Of a stretch of DNA of 44,225 nt, positions 77 to 19,555 are shown one piece after another. A program made the translations under genes and the position numbers. The notes below the pieces were generated by a model. That model was not told the origin of the DNA, made no database searches, and was given only the letters and a program-made list of their open reading frames with translations. Source of the DNA: a virus (lineage: Duplodnaviria > Heunggongvirae > Uroviricota > Caudoviricetes); IMG/VR virus record IMGVR_UViG_3300008453_000586; one strand, given 5' to 3'. Within the stretch, counting starts at the first letter, position 1. Each line of letters starts with the position of its first letter.

Positions 77-3000
77 ATGCCAATTTTTTATAATCAAGGT
101 GCACCTACACCAACTACAAAAAACAATATCACAGATATCGCAGTTTCTTATGGGATTAGAGATTTTCTATTAAATCTTAATTTAGCTCCGCAATATCCTT
201 TTATATCAACTTCAATTAATGGTAGTCCACGTATTGGTGAACCAGTATTAGATACTATGGTAGGTAGTGGTGCTCTTACAGTTCCAATTGGTTTACCTTT
301 AATTGCTAATGGTTTATTGTTTAAAGATTTGAATGTTATTTATAATACCTTTCAAAACGACCCTAGCGTTGCAAATAACGTAGAAAGTATCAACTACATA
401 CCTGATATACTAAACACTGATTATATCAACTCTGAATGGCCTCTAGGTGGTAATTTACCTTATCCAACAGGTGATAACCCACAAATTGAACAATATGGTA
501 TATTGGCTAAAACAACAGAAGCAAACTACAAGAAAGCCAATGTAATAAAGAATTTGTATTTGGATGAATCAAAACAAATTGATATGGCTTCTTTTATTGA
601 TTATCAACCTTTGGATATATCTCAACAAATCCCAGGATATTTAGACGTCTTTGGTGGTTTAAATCAAGGTGGTACAGCTGGTTCTCAAGCTATAAATATA
701 TTAGGTAGTGTATTAAACGGTCAAGGTGTCGGTATAGGTACCAATGGTAGTGTTGTACCAAATTTTGATATTAGAAGTTCTTTGGCTGGTAGAGTGTTGG
801 GAGCAACTGGTTTTTTAAATGATACAAAATTAGGGACTATTGGTGGACAACAATTAGCATTGGCATTGGCAAACAATGCTGCATTCAATGTACAACAAGA
901 GTTGTTTGGTGCTTTGAATATTGGTGAAAACATTTTAAACCTTATTAAAGATGGTTCAGCACCAGCGTTTAGACCAAACTACAAGATTACAGTGGCTCAA
1001 TCTACTGGTGGTAGAATATTAAATACAGCGTCCAATATTCTAGGTTTCCAAATTCCAAGAAGTTATTTGAGTGATGAAGGTTCAATTTTCCAATCAGAAA
1101 ATGGTGATGCAGCTAATATTGATAGAGCTAATTCAATGATATTAAACACTGGTAAAGGTCAATTAAAATCTTTGATTAGTAACGCGATGGCTAACGGAGC
1201 TGTAAATAGTTCAACTAACCCTTTTAGAAGTGGTTACGTACCAGCATACAACGATAATAAAGGTCAACCAGCGGTTAAATCTGCTGATACCAAAGTATAT
1301 GCTTATAGTAAAGCTGGAAACGTTGATAAGTTATTAGGTAATTCTGGTGACATCATACCAGAAATTAGTTACGATAGAGAAGCCTTGACCAAAAATTCTG
1401 GTTTTAGTTCACCAGATGATGATTTTGTGTCAACCGCTGGTTTTATTAATGTTGGTTATAATGGTAGAAAAACTTCATCAATTGGGTTTTCATGGACAAG
1501 TCAAGAAGGTGAAGCTTTAAATAAAGTACCTAATATTAGCACTCTTGGTTTAGACTTTACAGCTTTTGGTGGTTCACCGTTAACACCAGTAGCAACAGAT
1601 GTTGTTGGTGATAAAAAATCTTTGTTGGTTAAAACACAAAAATTATTTAACAGTAAAGGTATGAAAACACTTGTTTCAGTAAAAGGTGAAATGGGTGTTT
1701 CGTCAAGTCAGATACAAACTGCAAATAACGATGGTATATCTAAAGGTAGTGCTGTATTAGCATCTGGTAGATATGACTTAGAAACTGGTCGTGTAAACTC
1801 GTCTGGTGCTGAAGCTCAAAATAATTTCTGTAGAAGTTGGACAACGTTAGATAGATACGATAGTGTTAATAATCTTATTAGACATAAACCTTTATATGAT
1901 AGTACCAAAGCACCTTACAGATTCCAAACCGAAAACAGTGTGTTGGGTGATGGGGGTTTTGTAAAAATAGCACCATATTCTGATGACGTACCTACAGACC
2001 CAAAAAAGTTTATGTTTAGTATTGAAAATTTAGCATGGGCTGGTGACCCTTTTAATAATTTACCACAATGCGAACAAGGGCCAGGTGATTTAACAACTGG
2101 AAAACGAGGTAGAATCATGTGGTTCCCACCATATGATATTCAATTCACTGAAAACAATACTTTGGATTGGGAATCAAATAAATTCATTGGTAGAGGTGAA
2201 CCAGTATACACATACAACAACACAGAAAGAAGTGGTACTTTGTCGTTTAAAGTAATTGTAGACCACCCAAGCTATTATAATGCTTTTAGAGGTGAAAAAG
2301 GACCAGATGATAATTATATTGCCTCATATTTTGCTGGTTGCGTTGACCCAACTGAAGGTATGATTAGAAAATTAACAGTAAATGAAATAAATGATATTAT
2401 ACCTAGAAATGTTGTCATTGACCAACCTAAACAAGATTCACCAATACCACCAACTTCAACACTAAAAGTATATTTCCCTAATGATAATTTTGAGTTAGAC
2501 CAATTTCAAAATTATGAAAACGGTTTAAGTGGTAGTACACCTAGTGGTTTAGCTACTGCTATTGATTATACGATTAATTGTGATGGTTTTGGTTATGGTA
2601 TTGGTTTATACCCTAGTAACATAACCCAAGTAGATGTTAATGGTGTTACTAGAAATTGGGACGATAGATATAATTTTGGTTTGAATTGGAATAGTTCTAA
2701 CGGTAAACAAAACGATATTAACGGTAAAAAATATTTTGGTTATTTAGACCCAGATTACAACGCTGCTATGGTTGAATATCTTAAAAACGAATGCAAATAT
2801 TGTACTATAAAAGTTAAAGGTTATGCGAGTCCACAAGGTAACCAAAAATCTAATGAAAAATTAGCTAAAAAAAGAGCTGAATATATTATTAAACAATTAA
2901 AAACAAAATGGGGTGGTGGGATAGAATCGGCCGATATGGATAAAAGATTTAAAACACCTACTAGTGAAGCTAAAACAAGTTCAGGATGTCCAATACAAAC

Positions 3001-4378
3001 AGCTCAACAACCAAATCCACCAACAGATATTTTAGAATGTAAATTGGATAGGTTTGTTGAGGTAACAGTTGAATATGACCCAGAATTTGCAGCTGAAAAA
3101 GAAAAAGCTTTACAACCAGAGCCAATAACTAAAATAGAACGTACAGCAATCAAAAAAGAAATTTTGAACAAATTTTATACTGAATGTAATTATTTTGACC
3201 GTATGATAGAAGATAAACCTTTTGTTTTTGATGAAATTAGACAGAAAATTAGATATTTTCACCCAGCGTTTCATTCAACAACACCAGAAGGTTTGAATTC
3301 TAGGTTGACATTTTTATTACAATGTACCAGACAAGGTCCAACACTTGAACAACAAGGTGCTAATAACTTAGCTTTTGGTAGAGCTCCAGTTTGTATATTG
3401 AGAATTGGTGATTTTTATAACACAAAAATAATTATGGAGAATGTAAACATTGATTATGAACCATTAGTTTGGGACCTTAATCCAGAAGGTGTTGGGGTTC
3501 AACCAATGATTGCTAATGTTGATATTTCGTTTAAATTTTTAGGTGGTTCAAGTCTTATGGGGCCAATTAACAAATTACAAAATGCGTTATCATTTAACTA
3601 TTTTGCTAACACACACGTTTATGACCCTAGAGCTGATTATATTTCTAAGAATAGACCTTCATTTGTTCAGCGTTATAAAGATGAAAATGATTTAGATGCT
3701 AATGGTGTTGCTAAAGAAAAAGCTAGGTTGGTTGATGCACCATTCTCACCAACTGGTTTTTATATTAATGATGGTGTTGAATGTTATGAACCAGAGCAAA
3801 TAATAATATCTGAAAGTATTATTAATGAAAATAATAAAGAAGTTGACCAAGTTAAAGCTGAGGAAAAAGTTAATGGTGGTGTTGAAAATTCAACACAACC
3901 ACCTTTAAGCTCGACAACAGCTACAACAGTAACAGGAACTGATGAAGAAGTTATAGTACGCGTTCAAATAGAAAGTTATCAAGAAGTTTCTGAAGGTGAT
4001 GATACACTTCAAATTGGTTTAGGGTTTTATCCACCAGATAATAACCCAAATCTTAAATTTTTGTTATCTGGTGATAAAATTTATAAAGGCAAACTATCTT
4101 TAGTAAGGTTAAACTCCACAAAGGTTGATAATATAAACTTTTTTGTTACTGGTCGAAAAAATGATAATAATTCAACAATTTTCAAAGCTGAATCTGAAGT
4201 GATAGTGTCACCTACAGATAAAAGTTGGGTGTTAAATATACCATTAACAGATAATGATTTAGATTTCTTGTTAGCCGCTAAAAATGACACAACAGATGAA
4301 CATTATAGTTTACGTTTTAGATGGGACACTACAGACATTTTTAGTAGTGTTGGATATGCAAAAGCTAATGGTGGATAA
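77..4378 (+). CDS. Baseplate/tail-tube-initiator-like protein (tube fold) with an inserted OmpA-like peptidoglycan-binding domain
   Basis: Tube-fold N-half WFPPYDIQFTENNTLDWESNKFIGRGEPVYTYNNTERSGTLSFKVIVDHP (2120-2270) and C-half APVCILRIGDFYNTKIIMENVNIDYEP...PMIANVDISFKFLG (about 3374-3548) flank OmpA-C-like motifs VYFPND...IKVKGYASPQG..SNEKLAKKRAEYI...DRFVEV (2468-3064). Directly precedes a LysM/gp53-like gene and a hub gene, the usual order in contractile tail-tip modules. Confidence 0.65.
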   Translation: MPIFYNQGAPTPTTKNNITDIAVSYGIRDFLLNLNLAPQYPFISTSINGSPRIGEPVLDTMVGSGALTVPIGLPLIANGLLFKDLNVIYNTFQNDPSVANNVESINYIPDILNTDYINSEWPLGGNLPYPTGDNPQIEQYGILAKTTEANYKKANVIKNLYLDESKQIDMASFIDYQPLDISQQIPGYLDVFGGLNQGGTAGSQAINILGSVLNGQGVGIGTNGSVVPNFDIRSSLAGRVLGATGFLNDTKLGTIGGQQLALALANNAAFNVQQELFGALNIGENILNLIKDGSAPAFRPNYKITVAQSTGGRILNTASNILGFQIPRSYLSDEGSIFQSENGDAANIDRANSMILNTGKGQLKSLISNAMANGAVNSSTNPFRSGYVPAYNDNKGQPAVKSADTKVYAYSKAGNVDKLLGNSGDIIPEISYDREALTKNSGFSSPDDDFVSTAGFINVGYNGRKTSSIGFSWTSQEGEALNKVPNISTLGLDFTAFGGSPLTPVATDVVGDKKSLLVKTQKLFNSKGMKTLVSVKGEMGVSSSQIQTANNDGISKGSAVLASGRYDLETGRVNSSGAEAQNNFCRSWTTLDRYDSVNNLIRHKPLYDSTKAPYRFQTENSVLGDGGFVKIAPYSDDVPTDPKKFMFSIENLAWAGDPFNNLPQCEQGPGDLTTGKRGRIMWFPPYDIQFTENNTLDWESNKFIGRGEPVYTYNNTERSGTLSFKVIVDHPSYYNAFRGEKGPDDNYIASYFAGCVDPTEGMIRKLTVNEINDIIPRNVVIDQPKQDSPIPPTSTLKVYFPNDNFELDQFQNYENGLSGSTPSGLATAIDYTINCDGFGYGIGLYPSNITQVDVNGVTRNWDDRYNFGLNWNSSNGKQNDINGKKYFGYLDPDYNAAMVEYLKNECKYCTIKVKGYASPQGNQKSNEKLAKKRAEYIIKQLKTKWGGGIESADMDKRFKTPTSEAKTSSGCPIQTAQQPNPPTDILECKLDRFVEVTVEYDPEFAAEKEKALQPEPITKIERTAIKKEILNKFYTECNYFDRMIEDKPFVFDEIRQKIRYFHPAFHSTTPEGLNSRLTFLLQCTRQGPTLEQQGANNLAFGRAPVCILRIGDFYNTKIIMENVNIDYEPLVWDLNPEGVGVQPMIANVDISFKFLGGSSLMGPINKLQNALSFNYFANTHVYDPRADYISKNRPSFVQRYKDENDLDANGVAKEKARLVDAPFSPTGFYINDGVECYEPEQIIISESIINENNKEVDQVKAEEKVNGGVENSTQPPLSSTTATTVTGTDEEVIVRVQIESYQEVSEGDDTLQIGLGFYPPDNNPNLKFLLSGDKIYKGKLSLVRLNSTKVDNINFFVTGRKNDNNSTIFKAESEVIVSPTDKSWVLNIPLTDNDLDFLLAAKNDTTDEHYSLRFRWDTTDIFSSVGYAKANGG

Positions 4379-4399
4379 TAAAATTAAAATAAATAAAAA

Positions 4400-4720
4400 A
4401 TGGCAGAATATTACGATAGATATAGAGGATTTAAAGTTAACTCAGAAGTTAAACCAATTCCAGGTATTACAATACCTTCAAAAAGCACAGATAAAACACT
4501 TATTTACAAACAAGGTGTAACAAGACTTGACAAAATCAGTAACATGTATTATAATAATCCATATAGCGGTTGGTTAATAATGCAAGCTAATCAAGAATTT
4601 GGTGGTTTGGAGTTTGATATTCCAGATAACACATTGATTAGAATACCATTTCCTTACGAAGACGCTTTATCAAGATATATAACTCAAGTTTCAATACATA
4701 AAACACTTTATGGAGAATAA
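4400..4720 (+). CDS. LysM-like baseplate wedge protein (T4 gp53 / P2 gpX-like)
   Basis: RLDKISNMYYNNPYSGWLIMQAN...DIPDNTLIRIP fits the degenerate LysM pattern (L..IS..YY......W.I..AN...G..I.IP); small size and position between tube-initiator and hub genes. Confidence 0.75.
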   Translation: MAEYYDRYRGFKVNSEVKPIPGITIPSKSTDKTLIYKQGVTRLDKISNMYYNNPYSGWLIMQANQEFGGLEFDIPDNTLIRIPFPYEDALSRYITQVSIHKTLYGE

Positions 4721-7700
4721 TAACACACCTAAAATAGGTTGTAGCGGTGGAAATAGAACAAAAATAATAGACCCTAATGATTTTTATGGGTACCCTTCAT
4801 TTATGAATCGTTCAGTTCAAAATGAAGATTTGAATATTTCAGTAAAATTATCAACGTACAGAAAGGGGCGTACCGTTCTTTCAGCTAAAGATGATAAAGG
4901 TAGTGTTCAAACAACAAACACTATCAGACTTAATTTTATTGAAGGAAGTGATATAAACGGTAAAAAAGTTTTAACAACTAAATATACTGATTTAACAACA
5001 GTTTTTGAGCAAGGTACTATCAACACCGAAACTTTGGGTATCACTAATATCGATATCAATTTTAATTCATCTTTTGCACCACAAATTACGGTTGATTTTA
5101 TTGACGTAAGAGGTAGTTCTATTTTTCAAAACGAATCAGATATTTCTAATACGGATGTTAATAATCCATATGCTGCTTTCTTTCAGTTACCATATCCTTT
5201 ATTTGAATTAGAAATTAAAGGTTATTATGGTCAACCAGTAACGTATTGTTTACATATGATTAAATTTACATCAAAGTTTAATTCACAAACAGGTAATTTT
5301 GAAATTAAATGTGATTTTATTGGTTACACATATGCAATGTTATCTGATATGTTGGTTGGGTTTTTAAAAGCGATACCTTTTACAAAAATTGGTGCTGAAA
5401 AATTTAAAAACTACAATGAGGGTAGAGAAGTACCTATTTTGAATTTGGTCGATTTAAAAGTAAAAGTTGGTCAGATAAACGCGGCTATTGAAAAATTAGC
5501 TGTAAGTTCTAACAGTTCAAAAATTTTAAACTCTTTCGCTGAAGGTAAAGAAATATTAAACAGTATTTTAAGTGAATTTACAACATTTTCGATTATTGGT
5601 CTTAAAAAAAATTCTGATGATGAATCTAGTTATAGATTTATTGTCACAAATAATACTGATTTTACGTCAGACCAAAAAAAGAGTTACCAAGATTTAGATA
5701 CTAATGTAAGAGGTTACATAAAAAAATATAACGATTTAAACATAACAGGACTTAAATTAAATGATTCTGATTTTTTACCAGTTACTTATGTTCCAGATTT
5801 AACTATACCTCTTTTAAATGCTGATAGTACTGAGTCAATCAATACTACTATAACAGGTGAAGAATTAATAAAGTTTAAAAGAGAAGCTTTAGCTTACGTT
5901 AATGACTATATGGGTTTTACCGATACCTTCAAATTTAGAATGTATGATTTAAGACAGATAATTGATTTATTAGAAAAAGAAAAAACTAAATTAGATTCTA
6001 ATGTTGAAATTGCAAATAAATCTTTAGCTAACGAAATTAAAGATGAAATAACTTCAGAGCTTGGTTTTGACCCAACAGTTAGAAATATTATAGAAATTTT
6101 TACTGGGTTGATTGAAGTATTTATTGAAACAATATATGATGTTTCCCAAAATGCTGAAAACAACGTAGATAGAACTGCGGAATTGGAAAAAGTTTTTTCA
6201 GAAACATCAAAAACAACCAAAACAGATATAACCGACGTTCAACTTAAAGGTAAAAAATATTTTCCTTGGCCAGATTATTCAGAATATGATACAAAAACAA
6301 ATACATATGTTGAAAAATATTTAGGGTCAAACCCAGTTATTGATAGTAAATTATCAATAAATGAAATTAAATTTATTGAAGATTTATTGCAAGCATTTTT
6401 GAAAGCCAACGAAGAGGAAAATAAAGCTGATGCATTGGCTGCTGGTGATGAAATCAATTGGTTCCCATCAAATCCAATAGACACTAGATTGTTTGGTAAC
6501 CAAAAAAATCCTTATGAAAGAAGTGAGTTAATTTCATTGGAAGCGGTTAAAAGACTTATGTTAATTAGAGGTATGATGTTTTTAGGTTATACCAACGATG
6601 AGAAATATTTAACCAGAGAAGAAATTCAAACAATGGCTAAACTTGAAGCTAATGCAATCGCATCAGCAGCTCAACCAAGTTTAAAAAATGTATTGAAGAA
6701 TATAACACCAGACAAAATTAAAGATGTTACTGGTGTGATAAATGGGCGCGCTAGAAAATTAGTTAGTTCTACACCAAATGGTTATTCATATACTTATTTG
6801 TTTGTTGGTACTAATCCAGATAAAGAAATAAGAGTATTACCAATAAGTGGTGATTTTAACGATAAAACAATTGGTGGTTTAGTCACAAAAACTATAACTA
6901 CAGCAAATATAGACCAAACAACATATATCCCTGACACGTCAATACCAACAGTGGCAGCTCCTGGTACTGTTAAAACAACTAATTATTCATACATAGTAGA
7001 TAATGGTTCTTATGAAAATGAAGATACTAGAGATTTATTAAAAGAACTTAGTAAAAGTGAAAACTTTTTAACTAACTATAGCTCAGTAGCTGTAACTGGT
7101 GTTCAAAATAGAAAGTTAATTGATGGTGGTATTTATGTTAGAATGTTTACACCTTCTGAATTTAACACAACCGCACAACTTATAGATAGTAGCGTTAAAA
7201 CTGATTCTATTATTAATTTAGAACAATTAAGAAAAAGTAAAATTTCACAAGCTGGTTTTAATTGTTTTGGTGGTACTTATGGTATTCAAGAATTTGTGAA
7301 CATGGATTATGGTGATAATACAGCTTTAAAAGGGTTGCCACTTATGTATGTGTTTTATTCACCAGACAAAGATTATGGTTTAAGTTACACTAGAAAAGAT
7401 TCAGCAAAACATCAAAAATTACCTAACAATAAAACACTGACTAGCATATATGATTTTAAACTAAACTCTCCATCATTTTTAGCATCAAATGAATTTTATA
7501 CGGGTGTATTAACTGAAGTTAAATCTGATTCTAGAAATGATGAATTATTACTACATTCTGGTAGAAAAAATAATAGAGAATTATTTAATAATTTAGTAAA
7601 TCCAAATACTGGTAAATATAAAATCAGTTACCCATATATTGAACATGGTTTTGTCTATGGTTTAATAAGTTCAGGCACAGATAAAGACACACTTAGTTTG

Positions 7701-10700
7701 TTTGGTAGTAAATGGTACTATTTACAAGCTAATTCTAGAATGAAAAAAAACAATAACACCTTTATAAACAATATTAGTGGTAAATATACAAAAGCTTTAA
7801 TTTTTTTAAATACACTACCGTTTAATTTAGGTGATGAAATTTTAGATAATAATCCTTTATTTCCAAAAGAATTAAGACACTTATTTGATGTTAGAGGTGG
7901 TTTTGTCCATACACCAAGACTTTGGTGTGCTTTTATCGGTGGTATGTTATGGTGGATGTCAACGGAAGACCCAATTATTGACGGTGATTTTATTACAGGT
8001 GGTGGTAGAGGTAAAGAAGACCCTATTGTTTGGAAAACTACTTGTGGTAATAGTGCGTCACCTAAATATGACGCTACAGAACTTAACGGTAAATATTTAC
8101 CAAGAACAGTTGGTCACTCAAATAATGATATAAAATCAACCGATGTATTAGTAAATTTACCTAATCAAGTAAAAGAACAATTTAAAAAAATATTTTTTGA
8201 TTTTGTAAATGGTAATAGTGAATACATATCTTTTGACACACTTCGTAAAAATTTAGAAATATGGGATGAAAATAAACCAGTCACACAATTTTGTGGGTTT
8301 GTTGATTTATTATATAATACGTCAAACCCAGAAGATGACCAAGCACGTATATTACCATCTCAGATTACTAATAATTTAATAAATTATAAAAACTATAATA
8401 TAATCAACCTTTCAAAACAAACATCATCATTGACTTTATTTTTAGAATTAAATGATGATTCTATTGCTGTCACAAATTTATTAACAGCTTTGAAAGAAGA
8501 GGTTATAATTGCAAATACAGGTTATAGAATTTGGCGTGGACCTTTGACAGAAAATTTTGGAACTGAAGGTGAGGAATTAAAAACTTTACGCTACCCAATT
8601 TATGCTAGTAACGATAATTATGATGATTATTTTAAAACATTAACTAATGAATTAACTACTATAACTAGTGGTTATACCACATCAGCAGAAAAAGATGCAG
8701 CATTGAATGAAATTTTCAATACAGCTAATCTAAACGATATTAAATTAATGTTATATAGAAGTTGTAAAAATATTTATGATAAATGGTTGGGTGGTGTAAC
8801 AAATCCAGATAATATTATTTTTCAATGTGGTGAAAACGATATTAATGAAAGCAACAGAAATAAAACTGATTTAGCTATGGCTAGTAGGTTTGGAAGAACA
8901 AAAGCTAGATTAATAGATAGTTTCAGATTTGTAAATAGGTCCTTTAGAGATATTGGTGATGAGTTATTTATAAATCCGATACCGTTGAACGACAAATTAC
9001 AAGATTTCCCAAACACATCTGCGTATGAAATTATTTCAGGGTTGTTAGGTGATAATAAATTTGATTTTATCGCTCTACCAACATTTATAAATTTTCATGA
9101 TGATAAAGTTTTGGAATCTATGTTTAAACCAATAAGCATGTACGAAAACCCAATAAAATCTTGCGGGCCTTCTTTTGTTTGTGTTTATGTTGGTCAAAAA
9201 TCTAAAAATTTAGATTTAAAAGATGCTTCAACAAACTATACTAATGATGGTTTTGATATAAGATGTGATGGTGATAATTTGAGTAGTTCTATACCACCAG
9301 ATTATAGTAGTCCTCTAGGAAATAATGATGGCAAACTATATGAAGATGCGCTACCAGTTTTTGTTGTTAGATATGGTCAACAAAATCAAAACTTGTTCAA
9401 AGATATTACTTTAGACCAGAGTGAGTTTTCAGAAAGTGAAGAATCTATCAAGATAGTTCAAGACATATCAATGAAAGGCTCTAATACTAATATGAGTGTT
9501 GGTGGTCAAAATATGTATAACGTTTATTCAGTTAGAAGTTATAATGCTGAAGTTGAAATGATGGGCAACGCTATGATTCAACCTATGATGTATTTCCAAT
9601 TGGACAATATACCTATGTTCCATGGTGCATATATGATTACACGTGTAAAACATAGTATAAAACCTAACAACATGTCAACAAATTTTACTGGTGTTAGAAT
9701 TAGAGCAGCTGAAACACCAATTATTGATGTTGCTGATGCATACATGGCACTAATTGAAACATTGAATGTAGCTGGAGCAAATAAAGCTAAATCAGGTCGT
9801 GTTGGAAATGGAACTAGCGGTATGATTTTAGGTAAAAATTGTGGTGAGTTCAAATTGAAAAAACCATTGGTAGATGGTGCTGAAGGATTTTACAAAACTA
9901 AACCAATTAGAGATTTGGTTGGTGTTGTCGAAAGTAATGGTGATTATAACGCATATAATAATGGAACTGCTGGCTCTAAAGGTACTGGTAATTACACACC
10001 ATCACAAATGACAATTGGTGAAATAAAAAATGCACAAGCAAAAACAGGTACTGATAGAATATTTGCAGTTGGTAAATATCAATTAATACCAGATACATTT
10101 AACAATATGGTTAAAGCTTTAGGTTTTACGTCTGAACAAAAATTTAATGCTGAAGCTCAAGAAAAAGCTGGTGAATGGTTAATATTAAAAGGTGCTGGCT
10201 ATAGAAGCGGTTTAAGAGCATATTTTGCTAAAGGTAGTTTAGGTACAGAAAAAAACCTACAAGAAGCCATTACGGATTTAGCGTTAGAGTTTGCCTCTTT
10301 CCCAACTTATTTTGGTGTTTCTTCTCAAGAAGCTGCTGCTAGAGCAAACCCAATTGGTTATAATTCAAAAACAGCGTTATACGGTGGTTCAGCTGGAAAT
10401 GCTGCGGAATCTAAATTTTGTGCGCAAGATGTTTCTAAAGCTTTGATAGAAACATGGAAAAACCTAAACGAAGGTAAAACACCACAATTTGATTATAATA
10501 AAGTAACGGCAATAAGTAGTCAAGTTAGTGCTGCCGCTGATAACTCAATAAAAACAACTAGTTCAGATAAATCAGCAGCTATTATTATGGGTGATTCAAC
10601 TGTTGGTGTATTTAGCTCGGTACCAAATGGGTTGGTTAAAAATAATATTGAAATATCTTTTAATAAATCTGGAGAGACTGTTAAATGGTTAGTTGATAGA

Positions 10701-11072
10701 ATGACTGAATTTGCAAAAAACAACAAAAAGTATGGTAACACTAAACATGTGTTCGTATCAATAGGTACAAATGATGGTTATGTTGTAAACACTTCTAGCA
10801 AGAAAAAAATTAGTGAATTAAACGATTTGATTAAAAAAGTTTACCCTAACGCTAAAAGAATTGTTGTTCCAGGGACTTACGGGTGGGGTAATATTAAAGA
10901 TAAAACAAAACAAGACCAAGACGCTTATTATAAAACTTTTACAGATTTAGGTTTTATTTATCAATACCCTGACGCAAGTGCGTCAGTAAGTACTGATGCA
11001 AAAGCACATGACCCTAAAGGTGATTGGTTTGTTAAATCAGTTAAAAAAATTGTTGAATTAAAAAGTTCATAA
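4710..11072 (+). CDS. Baseplate hub protein (gp27/gpD/VgrG-N-like) fused to a lambda-R-like (GH104-type) muralytic domain and a C-terminal SGNH/GDSL hydrolase
   Basis: Hub end motif EVEMMGNAMIQPMMYFQLDNIPMFHGAYMITRVKHSI..NMSTNFTGVRIR. Lysozyme-fold motifs VVES(catalytic E)NGDYNAYN, AVGKYQLIP, FNAEAQEKAG, LALEFASFP (about 9900-10305) parallel lambda R AAGRYQ/FSPKSQD/IWASLP. SGNH blocks GDS (10590-10598), GTND (10764-10775) and DAKAH (10995-11009). Confidence 0.7.
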   Translation: MENNNTPKIGCSGGNRTKIIDPNDFYGYPSFMNRSVQNEDLNISVKLSTYRKGRTVLSAKDDKGSVQTTNTIRLNFIEGSDINGKKVLTTKYTDLTTVFEQGTINTETLGITNIDINFNSSFAPQITVDFIDVRGSSIFQNESDISNTDVNNPYAAFFQLPYPLFELEIKGYYGQPVTYCLHMIKFTSKFNSQTGNFEIKCDFIGYTYAMLSDMLVGFLKAIPFTKIGAEKFKNYNEGREVPILNLVDLKVKVGQINAAIEKLAVSSNSSKILNSFAEGKEILNSILSEFTTFSIIGLKKNSDDESSYRFIVTNNTDFTSDQKKSYQDLDTNVRGYIKKYNDLNITGLKLNDSDFLPVTYVPDLTIPLLNADSTESINTTITGEELIKFKREALAYVNDYMGFTDTFKFRMYDLRQIIDLLEKEKTKLDSNVEIANKSLANEIKDEITSELGFDPTVRNIIEIFTGLIEVFIETIYDVSQNAENNVDRTAELEKVFSETSKTTKTDITDVQLKGKKYFPWPDYSEYDTKTNTYVEKYLGSNPVIDSKLSINEIKFIEDLLQAFLKANEEENKADALAAGDEINWFPSNPIDTRLFGNQKNPYERSELISLEAVKRLMLIRGMMFLGYTNDEKYLTREEIQTMAKLEANAIASAAQPSLKNVLKNITPDKIKDVTGVINGRARKLVSSTPNGYSYTYLFVGTNPDKEIRVLPISGDFNDKTIGGLVTKTITTANIDQTTYIPDTSIPTVAAPGTVKTTNYSYIVDNGSYENEDTRDLLKELSKSENFLTNYSSVAVTGVQNRKLIDGGIYVRMFTPSEFNTTAQLIDSSVKTDSIINLEQLRKSKISQAGFNCFGGTYGIQEFVNMDYGDNTALKGLPLMYVFYSPDKDYGLSYTRKDSAKHQKLPNNKTLTSIYDFKLNSPSFLASNEFYTGVLTEVKSDSRNDELLLHSGRKNNRELFNNLVNPNTGKYKISYPYIEHGFVYGLISSGTDKDTLSLFGSKWYYLQANSRMKKNNNTFINNISGKYTKALIFLNTLPFNLGDEILDNNPLFPKELRHLFDVRGGFVHTPRLWCAFIGGMLWWMSTEDPIIDGDFITGGGRGKEDPIVWKTTCGNSASPKYDATELNGKYLPRTVGHSNNDIKSTDVLVNLPNQVKEQFKKIFFDFVNGNSEYISFDTLRKNLEIWDENKPVTQFCGFVDLLYNTSNPEDDQARILPSQITNNLINYKNYNIINLSKQTSSLTLFLELNDDSIAVTNLLTALKEEVIIANTGYRIWRGPLTENFGTEGEELKTLRYPIYASNDNYDDYFKTLTNELTTITSGYTTSAEKDAALNEIFNTANLNDIKLMLYRSCKNIYDKWLGGVTNPDNIIFQCGENDINESNRNKTDLAMASRFGRTKARLIDSFRFVNRSFRDIGDELFINPIPLNDKLQDFPNTSAYEIISGLLGDNKFDFIALPTFINFHDDKVLESMFKPISMYENPIKSCGPSFVCVYVGQKSKNLDLKDASTNYTNDGFDIRCDGDNLSSSIPPDYSSPLGNNDGKLYEDALPVFVVRYGQQNQNLFKDITLDQSEFSESEESIKIVQDISMKGSNTNMSVGGQNMYNVYSVRSYNAEVEMMGNAMIQPMMYFQLDNIPMFHGAYMITRVKHSIKPNNMSTNFTGVRIRAAETPIIDVADAYMALIETLNVAGANKAKSGRVGNGTSGMILGKNCGEFKLKKPLVDGAEGFYKTKPIRDLVGVVESNGDYNAYNNGTAGSKGTGNYTPSQMTIGEIKNAQAKTGTDRIFAVGKYQLIPDTFNNMVKALGFTSEQKFNAEAQEKAGEWLILKGAGYRSGLRAYFAKGSLGTEKNLQEAITDLALEFASFPTYFGVSSQEAAARANPIGYNSKTALYGGSAGNAAESKFCAQDVSKALIETWKNLNEGKTPQFDYNKVTAISSQVSAAADNSIKTTSSDKSAAIIMGDSTVGVFSSVPNGLVKNNIEISFNKSGETVKWLVDRMTEFAKNNKKYGNTKHVFVSIGTNDGYVVNTSSKKKISELNDLIKKVYPNAKRIVVPGTYGWGNIKDKTKQDQDAYYKTFTDLGFIYQYPDASASVSTDAKAHDPKGDWFVKSVKKIVELKSS

Positions 11073-11087
11073 ATAAAAAAAAAGTAG

Positions 11088-11095
11088 TATATTTG
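11088..11095 (+). promoter_or_regulatory. Bacteroidota-type -7 promoter element TATATTTG (TAnnTTTG)
   Basis: GTATATTTGCA, identical to the core at 13326-13336; ends 4 nt before the ATG at 11100; no clear TTG -33 element at the expected distance. Confidence 0.5.
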
Positions 11096-11099
11096 CATT

Positions 11100-11729
11100 A
11101 TGAAAATTGCGAATATAGTAACAAACAACAAAATCAACGTCTCAGAAGACTTTAATGTGGTTAAATCCATGGATGAAATAATCCATGGATTACCAACGTT
11201 GATTATTAGTTTTACTTATGTAAACAAACACTACCCAGATTTCGATGTTATGGAAATGCATATTAAAGACAACTTGTATTGGACATGTACACCAACCGAA
11301 GGTCGAGATAAATTTAGAGAAGATGTGTTTCATTTTGTATACATGGTTTACAAAGATTTGTTCGAAAAAATATCATATGTGTTCGTAGACCCAATACAAT
11401 ATAAACCAAGAGTTTTGGTTAAAATACTAAAAAAAATTTATTCTTTAGAAAATAAAATAACCTACATAAATGGTAAAATGATATACATATATGGTGATAA
11501 TTTTATATTTGGGGTTGATTTGAAATTATTAGATTATATTGGTATGGATATTGAAAAAATAAAAACTAAAATAATCTCTTTGAGCTCAGTGTTTTTGGTA
11601 CATGAGGATATATTTATAGAATATAAAAATACGATAGAGGATTTCGATAATCAGTATCGATTTATACCTTATTTATATTCTATTAAACATGGACAGAACA
11701 ATATTACTAGCGTCATTCATATTTCCTGA
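11100..11729 (+). CDS. Hypothetical protein (209 aa)
   Basis: Fills the gap co-directionally, has its own promoter-like element and a globular composition; no recognisable motif. Confidence 0.8.
   Translation: MKIANIVTNNKINVSEDFNVVKSMDEIIHGLPTLIISFTYVNKHYPDFDVMEMHIKDNLYWTCTPTEGRDKFREDVFHFVYMVYKDLFEKISYVFVDPIQYKPRVLVKILKKIYSLENKITYINGKMIYIYGDNFIFGVDLKLLDYIGMDIEKIKTKIISLSSVFLVHEDIFIEYKNTIEDFDNQYRFIPYLYSIKHGQNNITSVIHIS
11611..11618 (+). promoter_or_regulatory. Possible late-promoter motif TATTTATA embedded in the 3' end of the 209-aa gene
   Basis: Exact motif 70 nt upstream of the next ATG (11689); intragenic, so a chance match is possible in AT-rich DNA. Confidence 0.3.
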
Positions 11730-12090
11730 AAGGGTTGAATGGTTCCTTAGCTATTTAAAAAACAAATTTAACATCGAAAAAGAAAAAGTTTTCTGTTTCG
11801 AAAACCTTGATGATGAATCAAAGGTTATCATCACTTTTAGGTTAACCATTGAGGATGGCAAACCTTTGAACCTTAAAAATTTATTCCCTAACGCTATAAT
11901 TATACACAAAAAGGGTAATGCTTTATACACCATAAACGCGTTAAACAAACTTATTGAAGAAATATATCCAGATTCAATAGGGAATATGGATAATAAGAAC
12001 ATTAAACTAGATTGGTCCGAATATCAAAATAAATTCATATTAATAAACGATAATAAACTATGTCTTTTTAATATAAACAGAGTTTTTTAA
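11689..12090 (+). CDS. Hypothetical protein (133 aa)
   Basis: Co-directional ORF overlapping the previous gene by 41 nt; globular composition; no recognisable family. Confidence 0.75.
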   Translation: MDRTILLASFIFPERVEWFLSYLKNKFNIEKEKVFCFENLDDESKVIITFRLTIEDGKPLNLKNLFPNAIIIHKKGNALYTINALNKLIEEIYPDSIGNMDNKNIKLDWSEYQNKFILINDNKLCLFNINRVF

Positions 12091-12101
12091 TGATTTTTAG
12101 A

Positions 12102-12109
12102 TATTTATA
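12102..12109 (+). promoter_or_regulatory. Putative late-promoter motif (GA)TATTTATA
   Basis: Intergenic exact motif upstream of the 66-aa/267-aa gene pair. Confidence 0.5.
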
Positions 12110-12142
12110 TTAAAACATAAAATATATTTAATAATAGTAATT

Positions 12143-12343
12143 ATGGAACAATCAAAAAATACACAACAAATAAAAAAATCTGATGAGCTTAACGATGCTT
12201 TGAAAGGTTTCCTTAACACTGAAAACCAAGACCCAAATTTAGATTGTAGTTCTGGTGTATGTGTAATCAAAGGCGATAAAAGTATTCTAGAAAGAATCAA
12301 CAAAAAAATCATAACAGAAGACGGTAGACAATTATTATTCTAA
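12143..12343 (+). CDS. Small hypothetical protein (66 aa)
   Basis: A-rich leader, TAATG coupling to the next gene, C-terminal IITEDGRQLL motif. Confidence 0.7.
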   Translation: MEQSKNTQQIKKSDELNDALKGFLNTENQDPNLDCSSGVCVIKGDKSILERINKKIITEDGRQLLF

Positions 12344-13146
12344 TGAAAAAAACTAAGTTAAACCCTGAATTACTTAACGAAGAACTAAAAAGATTCAGAC
12401 TATTGAATGAATATAGTTTTTATACTGAGAAAGAAACATCTGATTACGAAAAACCACTTATACTAGGAACAGATTTAGAGGAAGCTGATGAAGACCCTAA
12501 CGCTTCAGACCCTAATCAAGATGCTGCCGAAGGTGGTGATGTTAATGATATGGGTGGAGAAGCTGGTCTTTCAGATGAAACACCAGCAGATGCAGAGGCG
12601 CCAGCAGATGAAATGCCAGCTGAAGATGATTTAGACTTTGGTGTTGGTGGTGATGAAACACCAGCAGAACCAAATGCTGAAGCTATGCCAGTCGAACCAG
12701 CAGCAGAAGAACCAGTTGATGATTCAGTTGAAATTGATGTTTCAGAACTTGTAAAAGGTTCTGAAGAAGCAAAAGAAGCCGCTGAGAAAGCTGAAAAAGA
12801 ATCTACCAAGGTAGCAAACATTTTGATGAATAAATTGTCTGATTTGGAAGCTAAATTAGCTAGAATGGATGCTGTTACAGCTAAAATAGATGGTTTGGAA
12901 AAAGAAATAATCAAAAGAAACCCAACACCAGTTGAAAAACTAGAAATGCGTTCATTGAGTTCTTATCCATATTCTCAAAAGTTAACTGATTATTGGAGTG
13001 ATAAAGAAGGTGCTTATGATGTAATGCATAAAGACGATAAACCAAAAGAATACGTGTTAACAAAAGACGACATAGATTCAACCTACAGTGATTCATCGAT
13101 AAGAGATAGTTTTGATGTTGACGATTACGAAGAAGAAGATATTTAA
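12343..13146 (+). CDS. Acidic protein with disordered Pro/Ala/Glu linker and coiled coil; possible scaffold or internal head protein
   Basis: N-terminal LLNEELKRFRLLNEY, acidic linker with DETPA/DEMPA repeats, heptad coiled coil (EEAKEAAEKAEKE...LEAKLARMDAVTAKIDGLEKEI); followed by a terminator. Function is inferred only. Confidence 0.55.
   Translation: MKKTKLNPELLNEELKRFRLLNEYSFYTEKETSDYEKPLILGTDLEEADEDPNASDPNQDAAEGGDVNDMGGEAGLSDETPADAEAPADEMPAEDDLDFGVGGDETPAEPNAEAMPVEPAAEEPVDDSVEIDVSELVKGSEEAKEAAEKAEKESTKVANILMNKLSDLEAKLARMDAVTAKIDGLEKEIIKRNPTPVEKLEMRSLSSYPYSQKLTDYWSDKEGAYDVMHKDDKPKEYVLTKDDIDSTYSDSSIRDSFDVDDYEEEDI
12574..12668 (+). repeat. 17-bp direct repeat GATGAAACACCAGCAGA (12574-12590 and 12652-12668) inside the acidic linker
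   Basis: Two exact copies plus a degenerate copy GATGAAATGCCAGC at 12607; encode DETPA/DEMPA. Confidence 0.7.
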
Positions 13147-13166
13147 CCAAATAAAAATACATTAAG

Positions 13167-13188
13167 AGCCCCTATAGGGGCTTTTTTT
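13167..13188 (+). terminator. Rho-independent terminator
   Basis: Perfect stem AGCCCC-TATA-GGGGCT followed by a T-tract, 20 nt after the 267-aa stop. Confidence 0.9.
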
Positions 13189-13214
13189 ATTTTTAAAAAT
13201 ATTCACAAAAAATA

Positions 13215-13245
13215 TTGCAAATTATCAAAAACATTCGTATATTTG
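13215..13245 (+). promoter_or_regulatory. Bacteroidota sigma70-type promoter P1 (TTG-N20-TATATTTG)
   Basis: TTG at 13215-13217, TATATTTG at 13238-13245, 20-nt spacer; matches the established -33/-7 consensus. Confidence 0.75.
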
Positions 13246-13303
13246 TAAAAATAGTTTTAGAAAAAACTTAAACTATTGGTAAAAAAAAATACTATTTGAA
13301 ATA

Positions 13304-13334
13304 TTGACTTTTGATAATTTAATTAGTATATTTG
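13304..13334 (+). promoter_or_regulatory. Bacteroidota sigma70-type promoter P2 (TTG-N20-TATATTTG)
   Basis: TTG at 13304-13306, TATATTTG at 13327-13334, same 20-nt spacer as P1; directly upstream of the SSB gene. Confidence 0.8.
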
Positions 13335-13383
13335 CATAACTTACAAACGAAGAAAATAACGTAAATATATATAAATTTTAAAA

Positions 13384-14280
13384 ATGAGTGAACAAAAAAA
13401 TGCCTTAGCTGAAATGTTGGCACAGTACGAAAAGAACAATGCTCCTAAGTACGAAAAAACAGAAGCAAAAACTTACGATTTGAAAAACTACTTTAACACT
13501 TTCTTAGAAAAAGGAGTTAAAACTGGTACAAAAACAATTCGTATATTACCAGCTACCAATGGAGGAACACCTTTCGTTGAAATGCACGCACACAAAGTAT
13601 TAGTAGATGGAGAATGGAAAACTTATCCTTGTTTGAAACACGAAAAAGGTGAAGACTGTCCTTTCTGCGAAGCTAGAGCTGCATTACAAGCGACTGGAAA
13701 AGAATCTGACAAAGAGTTAGCTAAAAAATTTAACGCACGTTTGATGTATGTTGTTAAAGTTATCGACAGAGACAACGAAGCAGATGGTGTTAAATTCTGG
13801 AGATTTAACCACGATTTCCGTAAAGAAGGGGTTTACGACAAAATCTTTGCAGCATGGAGTGCTTTGAAAAAAGACATTACAGACCCAGAGACTGGTCGTG
13901 ACTTAGTAATCACACTTAACAGAAACCAAAATGACGTTCCAGTAGTATCTGGTATCCAAGCTTTGGACCCAAGTCCACTGTCAGAAAACGCAGCACAAAT
14001 GGCTGAGTGGTCTTCTGACGAAAGAACATGGGAAGACGTATATTCTGTTAGAAATTACGACTACTTGTATTTAATCGTAAAAGGTGAAACACCAGTATGG
14101 GACAAAGACGAAAAACGTTGGGTTGCTAAAGACGCTGCTAAAGCTGACGAGAACGCAAAATTAGAGTCTGAATTAACTATAGGTGTGGAAAACGTAAAAT
14201 CTACTATGAAAGCAGCTGAACCAGTTGCTGAAGAAGTTAGCGTTACCTCTGAGGAAGACGAAGACGATTTACCGTTCTAA
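13384..14280 (+). CDS. ssb: T4 gp32-like single-stranded DNA-binding protein
   Basis: IRILP...PFVE..H motif; Zn site H-x12-C-x8-C-x2-C (HKVLVDGEWKTYPCLKHEKGEDCPFC) versus T4 gp32 H64/C77/C87/C90; acidic C-terminus EEDEDDLPF. Confidence 0.88.
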   Translation: MSEQKNALAEMLAQYEKNNAPKYEKTEAKTYDLKNYFNTFLEKGVKTGTKTIRILPATNGGTPFVEMHAHKVLVDGEWKTYPCLKHEKGEDCPFCEARAALQATGKESDKELAKKFNARLMYVVKVIDRDNEADGVKFWRFNHDFRKEGVYDKIFAAWSALKKDITDPETGRDLVITLNRNQNDVPVVSGIQALDPSPLSENAAQMAEWSSDERTWEDVYSVRNYDYLYLIVKGETPVWDKDEKRWVAKDAAKADENAKLESELTIGVENVKSTMKAAEPVAEEVSVTSEEDEDDLPF

Positions 14281-14300
14281 TATTGAATGGTTAAACCAAC

Positions 14301-14329
14301 AAAAAGGAGTGAGAAATTGCTCCTTTTTT
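14301..14329 (+). terminator. Rho-independent (possibly bidirectional) terminator with GAAA tetraloop
   Basis: AAAAAGGAGTGA-GAAA-TTGCTCCTTTTTT; stem has two G-U pairs; flanked by A5 and T6. Confidence 0.8.
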
Positions 14330-14365
14330 GTTCTAAAATAACAAGATTATAAATTAAACAAAAAA

Positions 14366-15475
14366 ATGAGTAAAAAACCAGAAAAGAAACCAATCGAAAA
14401 AAAACCATTTAGCAATAAGTCTGTAAAAGCCGCGTTAGGTTTAGGCAAACAAAATGTTAAAGAAAAAGAAATGAGTTGGATTCCTTTCAAAAAAGCTTTT
14501 CACGATGCTGTTGGGTTGCCTGGGGTTCCGAGAGGTTATACCTCTCAATTTAGAGGATTCTCTGACGTAGGTAAATCAACGGGTATCTATGAAACTATTG
14601 CTGGTGCACAACTACTAGGTGATTACATTGTAATATTTGACACCGAAGGTAGTTTTAACTGGGAACACGCTAGATTAGTAGGTTTCAAATATGAAGAAAC
14701 TGTAGACGAGGAAACTGGTCTTATCAACTACGAAGGCGAAGATTTTATTTATCTAGGTGGTCAAGATTTAGTAGACTTATACGCTAATTTTGACTACAAA
14801 TCTGGTAAAATGACACAATCACCACAAAGATTTATCCCAGTTGTTGAGGATATTGCTAGAGCCATGAACGAATTGATGGACCAACAATCTAGAGGTGAAC
14901 TAAACATGAACATTACATTCGTTTGGGATTCAATTGGTTCAATTGGATGTTACGAAGGTGCTGTTTCAAACACAAACAACAACCAATGGACCGCTGGAGC
15001 CTTGAAAAGAAGTTTCGAAAGTATTCTTAACTTTAGAATCCCAGCATCAAGAAGAGAAACGTCACCGTTTATCAACACATTTGTTACAGTACAAAAGATT
15101 TGGTTAAGACCAAACGCTGTGGGGCAACCAACTGTAATGCACAATGGTGGTGAAGGTTTCAAATATGGTGTTAGATTGATTTTCCACATGGGTGGTATGT
15201 CTACATCATCAGCTAAAAAACTGGAAGCTGTTAACTCTGGTAGAAATTACCAATTTGGTGTTATGACTGATATCAAATGTGTTAAAAACCACGTTAACGG
15301 AATCGAACAAATGGGTTCTATTTGTTCAACACCACATGGGTTTGTTAATCCAGCTGAAAAAAATGATTATGTTAAATCTCAAAAAGATTTCATAAACGAA
15401 AAGTTAGGTACTACTTTTGAAGATTTCGCAGTTAAAGAAATTGAACTAGAATCAGATGCCTACGAAAAACAATAG
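14366..15475 (+). CDS. recA: RecA/UvsX-like recombinase
   Basis: Walker A GFSDVGKST, catalytic Glu in FDTEGS, Walker B FVWDSIG, GG-x-G-x-K-Y motif (NGGEGFKY), C-terminal VKNHV strand. Confidence 0.9.
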   Translation: MSKKPEKKPIEKKPFSNKSVKAALGLGKQNVKEKEMSWIPFKKAFHDAVGLPGVPRGYTSQFRGFSDVGKSTGIYETIAGAQLLGDYIVIFDTEGSFNWEHARLVGFKYEETVDEETGLINYEGEDFIYLGGQDLVDLYANFDYKSGKMTQSPQRFIPVVEDIARAMNELMDQQSRGELNMNITFVWDSIGSIGCYEGAVSNTNNNQWTAGALKRSFESILNFRIPASRRETSPFINTFVTVQKIWLRPNAVGQPTVMHNGGEGFKYGVRLIFHMGGMSTSSAKKLEAVNSGRNYQFGVMTDIKCVKNHVNGIEQMGSICSTPHGFVNPAEKNDYVKSQKDFINEKLGTTFEDFAVKEIELESDAYEKQ

Positions 15476-15498
15476 TATTAACCTTTAAAAAGTTCATA

Positions 15499-16551: not shown

Positions 16552-16554
16552 AAA

Positions 16555-17070
16555 ATGAGTGAATACATTAAAAATGAAGAATTGAGATTTCAATTCGTAC
16601 TTTACATTAACGAAAACATTATATGTCAACGTTACTTCAACATCTATGACTTCAATGAAGATTCATTGAAATCTATAGAATTAAAAGACCTTATGAACGC
16701 CATAACTGGTGTTAATAATGGCGATTTCAGCTCTCAAGGTATCATACCTAAACACTTGAAGCGAAAATCAATAACCTATTTATGGGATACTTACAACCCT
16801 TATTTCTTACAAAACGAAGATTCGGCTAGAAATGGTTCTGACAAGAAAGATAATTTCCAATTTGAAATTAAAGTGGATGAACGTACTGTCGCTAAATCTG
16901 AATTTAGTGGAAATCTATTTCAACCAAAAATTAGATATGCGGTTGATGTTAGAGAAATAATTCCAGAGATTATGAGTGAAATTAGACAATATTTAAGTCT
17001 AAAAAAATACACAATTGACAGCAAAACAAAGGCTTGGGAAGAATCTCAAAAAGAATTTTTGATAAAGTAG
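16555..17070 (+). CDS. Hypothetical protein (171 aa) in the replication operon
   Basis: Starts 3 nt after the exonuclease stop; globular composition; no recognisable motif. Confidence 0.8.
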   Translation: MSEYIKNEELRFQFVLYINENIICQRYFNIYDFNEDSLKSIELKDLMNAITGVNNGDFSSQGIIPKHLKRKSITYLWDTYNPYFLQNEDSARNGSDKKDNFQFEIKVDERTVAKSEFSGNLFQPKIRYAVDVREIIPEIMSEIRQYLSLKKYTIDSKTKAWEESQKEFLIK

Positions 17071-17090
17071 TAGTTGATACTACTTTATCA
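17060..17090. other. Perfect 13-bp inverted repeat (hairpin) overlapping the 171-aa stop codon
   Basis: TGATAAAGTAGTA-GTTGA-TACTACTTTATCA; no long T-tract follows, but TATTTAT begins immediately at 17091. Confidence 0.85.
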
Positions 17091-17135
17091 TATTTATTAT
17101 TAACAAAGTTTTTAAAAATAAGATAAGGGGAAAAA

Positions 17136-18569: not shown

Positions 18570-18588
18570 CAAACAAAAAATTAACAAC

Positions 18589-19542: not shown

Positions 19543-19555
19543 TTAAAATATAAAT

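Follow-up and report, generated by a model that had tools for sequence, protein, structure and literature searches.

We analysed a stretch of 44,225 nucleotides from an uncultured tailed virus (Caudoviricetes; IMG/VR record IMGVR_UViG_3300008453_000586), in the following called the window, at the beginning of which three consecutive genes, here termed gA, gB and gC, are best explained as conserved central tail-tip genes of a very large contractile-tailed uncultured phage. The last of these, gC, ends in a two-domain enzyme cassette, in which a domain with a lysozyme fold is directly followed by a compact SGNH esterase domain, and which is replaced by other wall enzymes in related proteins. We tentatively propose, giving the proposal somewhat less than an even chance, that this cassette represents the first case of a peptidoglycan O-acetylesterase carried by a virion, joined in one protein with the lytic transglycosylase whose action it would assist, and that it recombines between tail hubs as an answer to cell-wall O-acetylation. 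The genes and domains carrying this proposal are the following:

77-4378, plus strand: gA, open reading frame of 1433 amino acids
4400-4720, plus strand: gB, open reading frame of 106 amino acids
4710-11072, plus strand: gC, open reading frame of 2120 amino acids
4710-9789, plus strand: gC body, residues 1-1693, conserved core of a putative central hub or tail-tip protein, the hub role being suggested by gene order
9790-11086, plus strand: exchangeable enzyme cassette, gC residues 1694-2120 plus a short spacer after the stop codon, delimited by a gap in the blastn alignment with the related locus L004
9852-10499, plus strand: lambda-lysozyme-like domain, approximately residues 1715-1930 of gC, predicted from an AlphaFold model and structural alignment
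10572-11069, plus strand: compact SGNH esterase domain, approximately residues 1955-2120 of gC, from a Pfam Lipase_GDSL match and a structural model

The boundaries of the cassette are marked by a natural swap. Scanning IMG/VR with the gB alignment resulted in 80 related loci, the closest of which, L004, lies on a 362-kb contig. In a blastn comparison window and L004 are 89.9% identical over positions 2-1405, 88.4% over 1607-9789 and 94.6% over 11087-14000, with no detectable similarity across exactly 9790-11086, and in the corresponding gap L004 encodes VanY and a GH24 lysozyme (Phage_lysozyme). Residues 1694-2120 are thus seen to be swapped as one piece at the end of the body, and the cassette is, judging from this alignment, mobile and exchangeable by recombination. 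The gC homologs, at least 654 proteins of about 2000 amino acids, have the body in common at 38-83% identity and are alike over their first ~80%, diverging in the last ~400 residues. According to our own tally over 119 listed hub homologs, 93 carry recognised peptidoglycan-hydrolase Pfam domains at the cassette position (VanY, GH24, Phage_lysozyme2, SleB-like, M23, DUF2272), the combinations being VanY with Phage_lysozyme2 (30 hubs), VanY alone (24), DUF2272 (10), DUF2272 with Phage_lysozyme2 (9), VanY with GH24 (8) and others including M23 and SleB-like domains (12). Three-domain tails of 620-640 amino acids are present in other hubs. The lysozyme-like and SGNH pair recurs in hubs being only 38-50% identical overall (P0008, P0009, P0069, P0073, P0094), in which the identity of the cassette, 47-66%, is above the hub-wide identity, which argues for a pair conserved as a unit. 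A scan of IMG/VR with the cassette as single protein gave no match.

Two further kinds of hub tails were observed. The hubs of four loci (L027, L054, L058, L077) have only 34-55 amino acids beyond the conserved body and no enzyme cassette, showing that the cassette is dispensable for the structural role of the hub. In five others (L011, L034, L061, L076, L081) the body is followed by a single-domain tail of 215-304 amino acids without Pfam match, and these tails may be undescribed wall enzymes occupying the same slot.

The SGNH domain is recognised by the Pfam model Lipase_GDSL with 24.5-28.4 bits, above the cut-off of 23.6. The two-domain model of the cassette has a predicted local distance difference test score (pLDDT) of 89.4, exceeding 90 across the SGNH domain, which adopts a flavodoxin-like alpha/beta/alpha fold. 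All 20 Foldseek matches at E<=1e-3 in the list shown are SGNH/GDSL enzymes, apart from designed-scaffold entries. With VIA-align, Z-scores of up to 13.4 were obtained, this value being reached by platelet-activating factor (PAF) acetylhydrolase and by a sialate esterase, followed by the C-terminal domain of OatA (13.3), CE2 esterases (~12), the peptidoglycan O-acetylesterase Ape1 (11.2-11.3), PatB (10.9) and gp63.1 of phage G7C (10.0). The sequence contains the SGNH motifs GDS with Ser1963 (bases 10596-10598), Gly1988, GTND with Asn2021, G-T/S-x-GWG and A-H with His2100 (bases 11007-11009). Ser1963, Gly1988, Asn2021 and His2100 are invariant in six full-length hubs, and the additional G-T/S-x-GWG motif is conserved as well; GDS of block I, Gly of block II and Gly/Asn of block III are at least 90% conserved in 131 distant members, and the His is present in nearly all SGNH-bearing rows of the wider alignment. 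In block V gC reads D-A-K-A-H (D-x3-H), the homologs having VGKAH, VNKAH, EAEAH and others, without a conserved acidic residue. A PDB sequence search gave no match at E<=1, with no sequence homology to Ape1 seen, and tblastn with the SGNH domain against 50,697 phage records returned none at E<=0.1, the subfamily thus being absent from deposited phage records.

The missing Asp of the canonical triad could be taken to mean that the domain is catalytically inactive and acts as a wall-binding or structural module. We judge this very unlikely considering the conservation of blocks I-III at 90% or more over 131 members and a His invariant in six full-length hubs; moreover, CE2 esterases function with Ser-His dyads. 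A further explanation, also improbable in our view though slightly less so, is a lipase, phospholipase or lipoprotein esterase weakening the outer or inner membrane at the entry site. The Pfam match to GDSL lipase/acylhydrolase models and the occurrence of PAF acetylhydrolase, a phospholipase A1 and lipases among the structural matches are in line with such a function, against which stand both the nature of the domains co-occurring with the SGNH domain, these being wall-directed and not membrane-directed, and its very compact build, the ~170 residues comprising the SGNH core alone without any sign of a lid or hydrophobic extension in the sequence.

The first domain of the cassette has no Pfam or NCBIfam match even at permissive E-values, and its assignment comes from structure prediction. 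The model of both cassette domains gave only SGNH matches in both fold searches, and the lysozyme-like domain was therefore folded alone (AlphaFold, residues 1691-1947, pLDDT 84.5). In VIA-align its best match is the lysozyme domain of the cyanophage A-1(L) hub (8kea_A; Z 9.7, 156 residues aligned), the second lambda lysozyme (1am7; Z 8.1, root mean square deviation 4.5, 139/154 residues), with Slt70, Cj0843, MltC, MltE and phiKZ gp144 following at Z 6-7; Foldseek gave weak rows for the lone domain, mostly from lysozyme-superfamily enzymes. Alignment to lambda R by hhalign has a probability of 60.6% over 69 columns. Glu1741 (bases 9930-9932) within an E-S motif and GKYQ at 1788-1791 are kept in all true family members. 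Glu1741, located at the end of model helix 41-52, is the putative catalytic acid. A tblastn search located the domain in cyanophages and a few further phages, where it is encoded in hub, structural and tape-measure genes. We consider lambda-R-like a fair description of the predicted fold, and the domain is a putative member of the lambda R family and probably a lytic transglycosylase rather than a hydrolase. The original prediction of a muralytic domain directly followed by an SGNH hydrolase in gC is thereby confirmed at the level of modelled folds, with Z-scores of 9.7 and 8.1 for the lysozyme-like domain and of ~13 for the SGNH domain.

Which ester the SGNH domain may cleave is suggested by the domains occurring beside it. 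Searching 1.84 billion representatives with this domain resulted in 146 matches, many of the short ones being fragments of long hub proteins, and none of these cluster members is named. The lambda-like domain is the partner in 8 of the 146. Hub relatives also show the combinations VanY + Phage_lysozyme2 + SGNH, Amidase_2 + SGNH, and Phage_lysozyme2 + SGNH + M15 peptidase (M15_3). Among the 131 shorter members the partners are PG_binding_1 (10 times), SLT (six), Amidase_2 (three), Phage_lysozyme2 and Phage_lysozyme (two each) and, as single cases, NlpC/P60, GH19, CHAP and PG_binding_3, non-wall domains occurring once or twice each. A strict tie of the SGNH domain to the lambda-like domain, which was true in the first 120 homologs and the IMG/VR loci, failed in this wider search owing to the VanY+Phage_lysozyme2, Amidase_2 and M15 partners. 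Co-occurrence of lysozyme and SGNH domains across homologous hubs, which the original prediction had put forward as a check, holds in part: divergent hubs keep the pair as a unit, and the SGNH domain also joins other enzymes. As a separate observation, three SGNH-domain relatives carry type IV secretion system pilin or TrbC/VirB2 domains, and the subfamily may thus also occur in conjugation-type machines crossing the wall.

As the recognised partners are mostly peptidoglycan hydrolases or peptidoglycan binders and the slot is one of wall enzymes, an esterase directed at peptidoglycan is the most plausible interpretation. Among the esters of glycan strands in murein, only the 6-O-acetyl group on N-acetylmuramic acid (MurNAc) is common. 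This group blocks lytic transglycosylases outright, as these need a free C6 hydroxyl, and hinders lysozymes (PMC1199599). It abounds in Bacteroides, and Bacteroidota have O-acetylated peptidoglycan, amounting to 69% in B. fragilis and 27% in B. thetaiotaomicron (PMC1199599). De-O-acetylation of murein by the SGNH domain in service of the neighbouring cutter, as suggested by the domain co-occurrence, has in our estimation an even chance of being correct. The same fold may be directed at a different surface glycan, i.e. O-antigen, capsule or exopolysaccharide, aiding adsorption or passage of the outer layers as the tailspike esterases of phage G7C and Vi phages do. Known phage SGNH esterases act on surface polysaccharides (PMC5380687), G7C gp63.1 is a structural match at Z 10.0 with CE2 and sialate esterases among the best, and the A-1(L) hub also has a non-murein 'endoglucanase' domain. 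The subfamily travels, however, with peptidoglycan hydrolase and binding domains and not with fibre or spike domains, and it resides on the central hub and not on a fibre, in a slot otherwise filled by murein enzymes, so that we consider a surface-glycan esterase unlikely, albeit the most serious of the alternatives.

Several results weigh against a murein O-acetylesterase serving a lytic transglycosylase. The modelled SGNH fold is generic and its structural matches single out no substrate, Ape1 being no closer than PAF acetylhydrolase, the sialate esterase, the C-terminal domain of OatA or the CE2 esterases. With the block V Asp not being conserved, the enzyme would operate with either a Ser-His dyad or an unusual triad. 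The subfamily also adjoins amidase and peptidase domains, which need no de-O-acetylation. The first cassette domain shows weak sequence similarity with lambda R (blastp E 0.042, hhalign 60.6%, Foldseek E 0.25), and no activity is reported for the lysozyme domain of the A-1(L) hub (PMC10966104). Comparisons of the gC body with P2 gpD by hhalign and with T4 gp27 by blastp were uninformative.

We nevertheless favour a murein O-acetylesterase, supporting a model according to which contraction of the tail would drive the tip of the hub through the outer membrane and so deliver the cassette to the periplasm. There the SGNH esterase, with Ser1963 and His2100, would remove 6-O-acetyl groups from MurNAc, and the neighbouring glycan cutter, needing the free C6 hydroxyl, would then make a local opening in the wall for the tube to pass. 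Mechanistically, it makes sense for a lytic transglycosylase to be preceded by de-O-acetylation (PMC1199599). Most relatives would use a peptidase and muramidase cassette at this step, the phage described here a lysozyme-fold enzyme fused to a compact SGNH esterase.

Work on peptidoglycan O-acetylation has addressed the protection it gives from host lysozyme and its control of autolysins, its role in phage entry being essentially unexplored. If the O-acetylesterase function holds, O-acetylation would obstruct not only lysozyme but also the entry of phages, and the domain would represent a new compact, Asp-less SGNH family specific for murein. The two-domain cassette of ~430 residues, its boundaries marked by the natural swap, is directly testable on O-acetylated versus de-acetylated sacculi. 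An esterase acting on murein could moreover assist muralytic enzymes in attacking bacteria whose walls are O-acetylated. Independently of its substrate, the hub family with at least 654 members, about ten cassette types and one fixed junction offers a natural collection of wall enzymes associated with the virions of very large uncultured phages.

The assignment of gA, gB and gC to the tail tip is supported by synteny and position. The order gA-gB-gC is found in every related IMG/VR locus having flanking DNA, the gA homolog ending just 5' of gB and the gC homolog starting at the end of gB or within a few bases of it. In the window gB and gC share 11 bases (4710-4720) at the stop of the former and the start of the latter, and the same overlap in most of the related loci L004-L083 suggests translational coupling of a small adaptor and the hub. 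In L004 a tape-measure gene (phrog_167, E 2.9e-12) lies directly 5' of gA and is preceded by a 'baseplate hub' PHROG match. The resulting order of tape measure, gA, gB and gC mirrors, as far as gene order tells, that of tape measure, gpU, gpX and gpD in P2-type tails and R-type pyocins; U-X-D is the canonical gene order of R-type pyocins, and the P2 gene map was examined for the order of gpU, gpX and gpD. The tail-tip location given in the original prediction is therefore backed by synteny, with the tape measure 5' of gA in L004, gC being a putative hub. Since hhalign of the family alignments against the single sequences of P2 gpU, gpD and gpX and of T4 gp48 and gp54 was uninformative, as was blastp against T4 hub genes, the reading of gA as tube initiator and of the gC body as hub rests on gene order.

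In two loci (L024 and L025, 9355-11633) gA, gB and the hub gene do not abut and are spaced by ~650 bases and ~1.3 kb, suggesting that genes were inserted into an otherwise rigid block.

None of the hub models in Pfam, PHROG or NCBIfam matches the gC body of ~1690 residues, distant hub relatives scanned against PHROG gave matches only to their enzyme domains, and no enzyme or hub was retrieved when gA, gC or the family profile of gC was compared directly with PDB sequences. All three families are known only from metagenomes. Megablast of the region against the 50,697 phage records revealed no close DNA relative, and a scan of bacterial genomes found only four contigs of mis-binned metagenome-assembled genomes, giving no host information.

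gA belongs to a family with at least 1729 homologs and would, from its position between the tape measure and the LysM-fold protein, occupy the slot of tube initiators such as P2 gpU and T4 gp48/gp54; hhalign and blastp comparisons with these proteins were uninformative. It had no protein match by tblastn against the phage records, and an Atlas search with its middle part returned only its own unnamed family. Within gA one further domain can be delimited:

2459-3076, plus strand: divergent OmpA-C-like domain, approximately residues 795-1000 of gA, from a sub-cut-off Pfam OmpA match and a comparison of the family profile with PDB

Pfam OmpA (PF00691) matches residues 898-942 with E-values of 1e-4 to 4e-4 (21.2-22.9 bits, below the cut-off of 27.2), and NCBIfam gave OmpA-type matches that are likewise weak. 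A profile of 30 gA homologs searched against PDB retrieved OmpA-C/Pal domains in 24 of 25 matches, the best being OprF (E 1.5e-3), and a few homologs have a precomputed PF00691 match or an OmpA name from JGI. From these profile matches we regard the domain as real but divergent. It is the least conserved stretch of the region (~795-1000), lying between the nearly invariant blocks 640-760 and 1040-1190, which fits an insertion between two far better conserved stretches. Its conserved elements are vyfpND, GYASpqG..N..La..Ra and CK.dR. In OmpA and Pal the Asp/Arg pair of the motif GHTD ... RA contacts diaminopimelate. gA has GYAS in place of GHTD, with S918 invariant in 30 homologs at the position expected for the Asp, so that only Arg933 of the pair, invariant as well, is kept. 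Peptidoglycan binding by gA is thus possible but unsupported, as a Ser replaces the diaminopimelate-contacting Asp; the insertion is a constant feature of the family and no part of an O-acetyl-specific kit, and it may still touch peptidoglycan.

For the closest listed gA homolog (P0123, 86% identical) and for a hub homolog (P0012) alike, the longest contig given measures 78,629 bp. This hub is only 52% identical to gC and carries VanY+Phage_lysozyme2, and the two proteins, apparently encoded on one contig, hint at mosaic exchange within the tail-tip block.

gB has 424 homologs, of which the best 120 show 65-95% identity and lengths of 104-107 amino acids, nearly all having 106. The gB sequence conforms to the LysM pattern, without Pfam match and without sequence or profile match in PDB. 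A PHROG match to 'baseplate wedge' is weak (E 6.6e-3), hhalign of the family to P2 gpX aligned only 24 columns, and tblastn against the phage records gave one weak match in an uncultured 484-kb phage. Its ESM Atlas neighbours carry Phage_tail_X or Phage_gp53 (feature scores 0.94-0.95, template modelling scores 0.58-0.63). This lead-level support is strengthened by the position of the gene, which is that of gpX/gp53 genes, following the tape measure and the initiator-position gene and preceding the hub gene, making a LysM-like fold of gB probable. The solved baseplate of A-1(L) contains a small LysM protein (gp16) in six copies, which connect the hexameric wedge with the trimeric hub and whose LysM domains are encircled by wedge and initiator proteins and buried (PMC10966104). 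Enclosed in this manner, the A-1(L) counterpart of gB is not free to bind murein. By analogy gB is most likely a gpX/gp53-like structural adaptor between trimeric hub and hexameric wedge, and its fixed length, high conservation and coupling to gC fit this role and not that of a free murein binder. The caveat of the original prediction that the gp53/gpX LysM fold is often purely structural is well taken, gB resembling the buried adaptor of A-1(L).

These observations also bear on the idea that all three genes form a dedicated kit, in which gA, by its OmpA-like domain, and gB, by its LysM fold, would bind peptidoglycan and position the gC enzymes. The constant adjacency of gA, gB and gC, the murein binding of OmpA-C and LysM folds in other proteins and the invariant Arg933 of the gA OmpA motif all speak for such a kit. 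They have to be set against the finding that the conservation of gA and gB is the same whichever cassette the adjoining hub carries, and also where it carries no cassette (L027, L054, L058, L077), against the burial of the LysM protein in the solved A-1(L) baseplate and against the Ser invariably replacing the OmpA Asp in gA, and we rate a three-gene kit as improbable, standing between the lipid esterase and the inactive domain. The four features named in the original prediction (OmpA-C-like, LysM-like, lambda-R-like and SGNH) are all present where it placed them, the OmpA-like domain being divergent and the LysM fold having lead-level support. Profile and structure comparisons for each domain gave a mixed outcome, as the SGNH and lysozyme folds were recovered and OmpA-C/Pal was found in 24/25 matches, gB having no solid Pfam, PDB or hhalign match. 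What had been described as a coordinated wall-breaching kit against O-acetylated murein persists as a hypothesis for the two-domain cassette of gC and falls away for the three genes, since gA and gB stay constant whatever the cassette: L004 with its VanY+GH24 keeps both at ~88-95% DNA identity. We therefore retain the murein O-acetylesterase proposal for the gC cassette, with gA and gB as structural surroundings.

All genes of the window are encoded on the plus strand, at a G+C content of ~31%. The three open reading frames 3' of gC (11100-13146; 209, 133 and 267 amino acids) are without Pfam-level or NCBIfam annotation, one PHROG match being to a group of not known function, and a spike or PAAR-like hub partner was not identified among them in Pfam-level, PHROG and NCBIfam scans. 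A replication and nucleotide block follows at 13384-21712, containing a gp32-like single-stranded DNA-binding protein, a UvsX-like recombinase, an exonuclease, a DnaB-like helicase and both ribonucleotide reductase subunits. Large unannotated open reading frames are present elsewhere. Annotation of the open reading frames revealed one additional group of tail genes:

21825-24039, plus strand: gp25-like and gp6-like baseplate wedge genes

The baseplate genes are thus arranged in two blocks, tail-tip (77-11072) and wedge (21825-24039), with the replication block between them.

Among the closest known systems is the baseplate of cyanophage A-1(L) (PDB 8KEA; PMC10966104), whose contractile-tail hub gp15 has lysozyme, endoglucanase and peptidase domains and hence, like gC, more than one domain for degrading the wall. 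No structure matched the lysozyme-like domain of gC better than the lysozyme domain of gp15 (Z 9.7), and a small LysM-fold protein, gp16, and a tube initiator, gp18, accompany the hub. It differs in lacking an SGNH esterase and in having its enzymes inserted within an 899-residue hub, whereas those of gC form a C-terminal cassette after a body of ~1690 residues. T4 gp5/gp53 likewise has a wall-cutting enzyme on the central baseplate complex, and on the T4 map gene 53, encoding a LysM-fold protein, lies just upstream of the enzyme-bearing gene 5; the T4 enzyme is a GH24 hydrolase located between an OB fold and a beta-helix spike, with no esterase and no exchangeable C-terminal cassette. Lambda endolysin R (PDB 1AM7), a lytic transglycosylase, shares with the gC domain the lysozyme fold (139/154 residues superposed, Z 8.1) and the segments G-K/R-Y-Q-L and A-I-x-D..W/F-A-S-x-P; the putative catalytic Glu of the gC domain is modelled where its first helix ends. 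Identity is ~17%, the gC domain is ~70 residues longer and without Pfam or NCBIfam membership, and R is a soluble endolysin whereas gC is predicted to be a virion protein.

For the SGNH domain, Ape1 of Neisseria and Campylobacter (PDB 4K3U, 8GLD) has the fold in common with gC (Z 11.2-11.3), and the chemistry that we propose for gC would be the same, i.e. 6-O-acetyl removal enabling lytic transglycosylases to act (PMC1199599). Ape1 is a host housekeeping enzyme not present in virions, its PDB chains have 350-365 residues compared to ~170 in gC, which does not show the two-lobed architecture with an added domain, there is no sequence-level homology, and the gC family has no conserved block V Asp. 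In the Tal proteins of Staphylococcus siphophages, phi11 Gp44 and 80alpha gp59, a gp27-like hub is combined with a C-terminal SGNH hydrolase (PMC4876445, PMC7048315), so that, as in gC, the central tail-tip trimer ends C-terminally in an SGNH/GDSL domain, for which action on the wall was proposed, activity being unproven. These phages differ by non-contractile tails, a Gram-positive host, a larger SGNH domain (~240 amino acids) and the absence of a fused lysozyme-fold domain, and tblastn (deposited phage records, E<=0.1) revealed no sequence relation to the SGNH domain of gC. The statement of the original prediction that no such arrangement is described in a phage has to be narrowed accordingly, as multi-enzyme hubs (A-1(L) gp15) and hub SGNH domains (phi11 Gp44, 80alpha Tal) are published; it stands for the pairing of lysozyme and SGNH domains, our literature search having found neither a phage peptidoglycan O-acetylesterase nor a lysozyme+SGNH fusion on a virion protein. 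Multi-enzyme hubs and hub-borne SGNH domains being already known, what is new here is the cassette combining a lysozyme fold and an SGNH domain on a hub.

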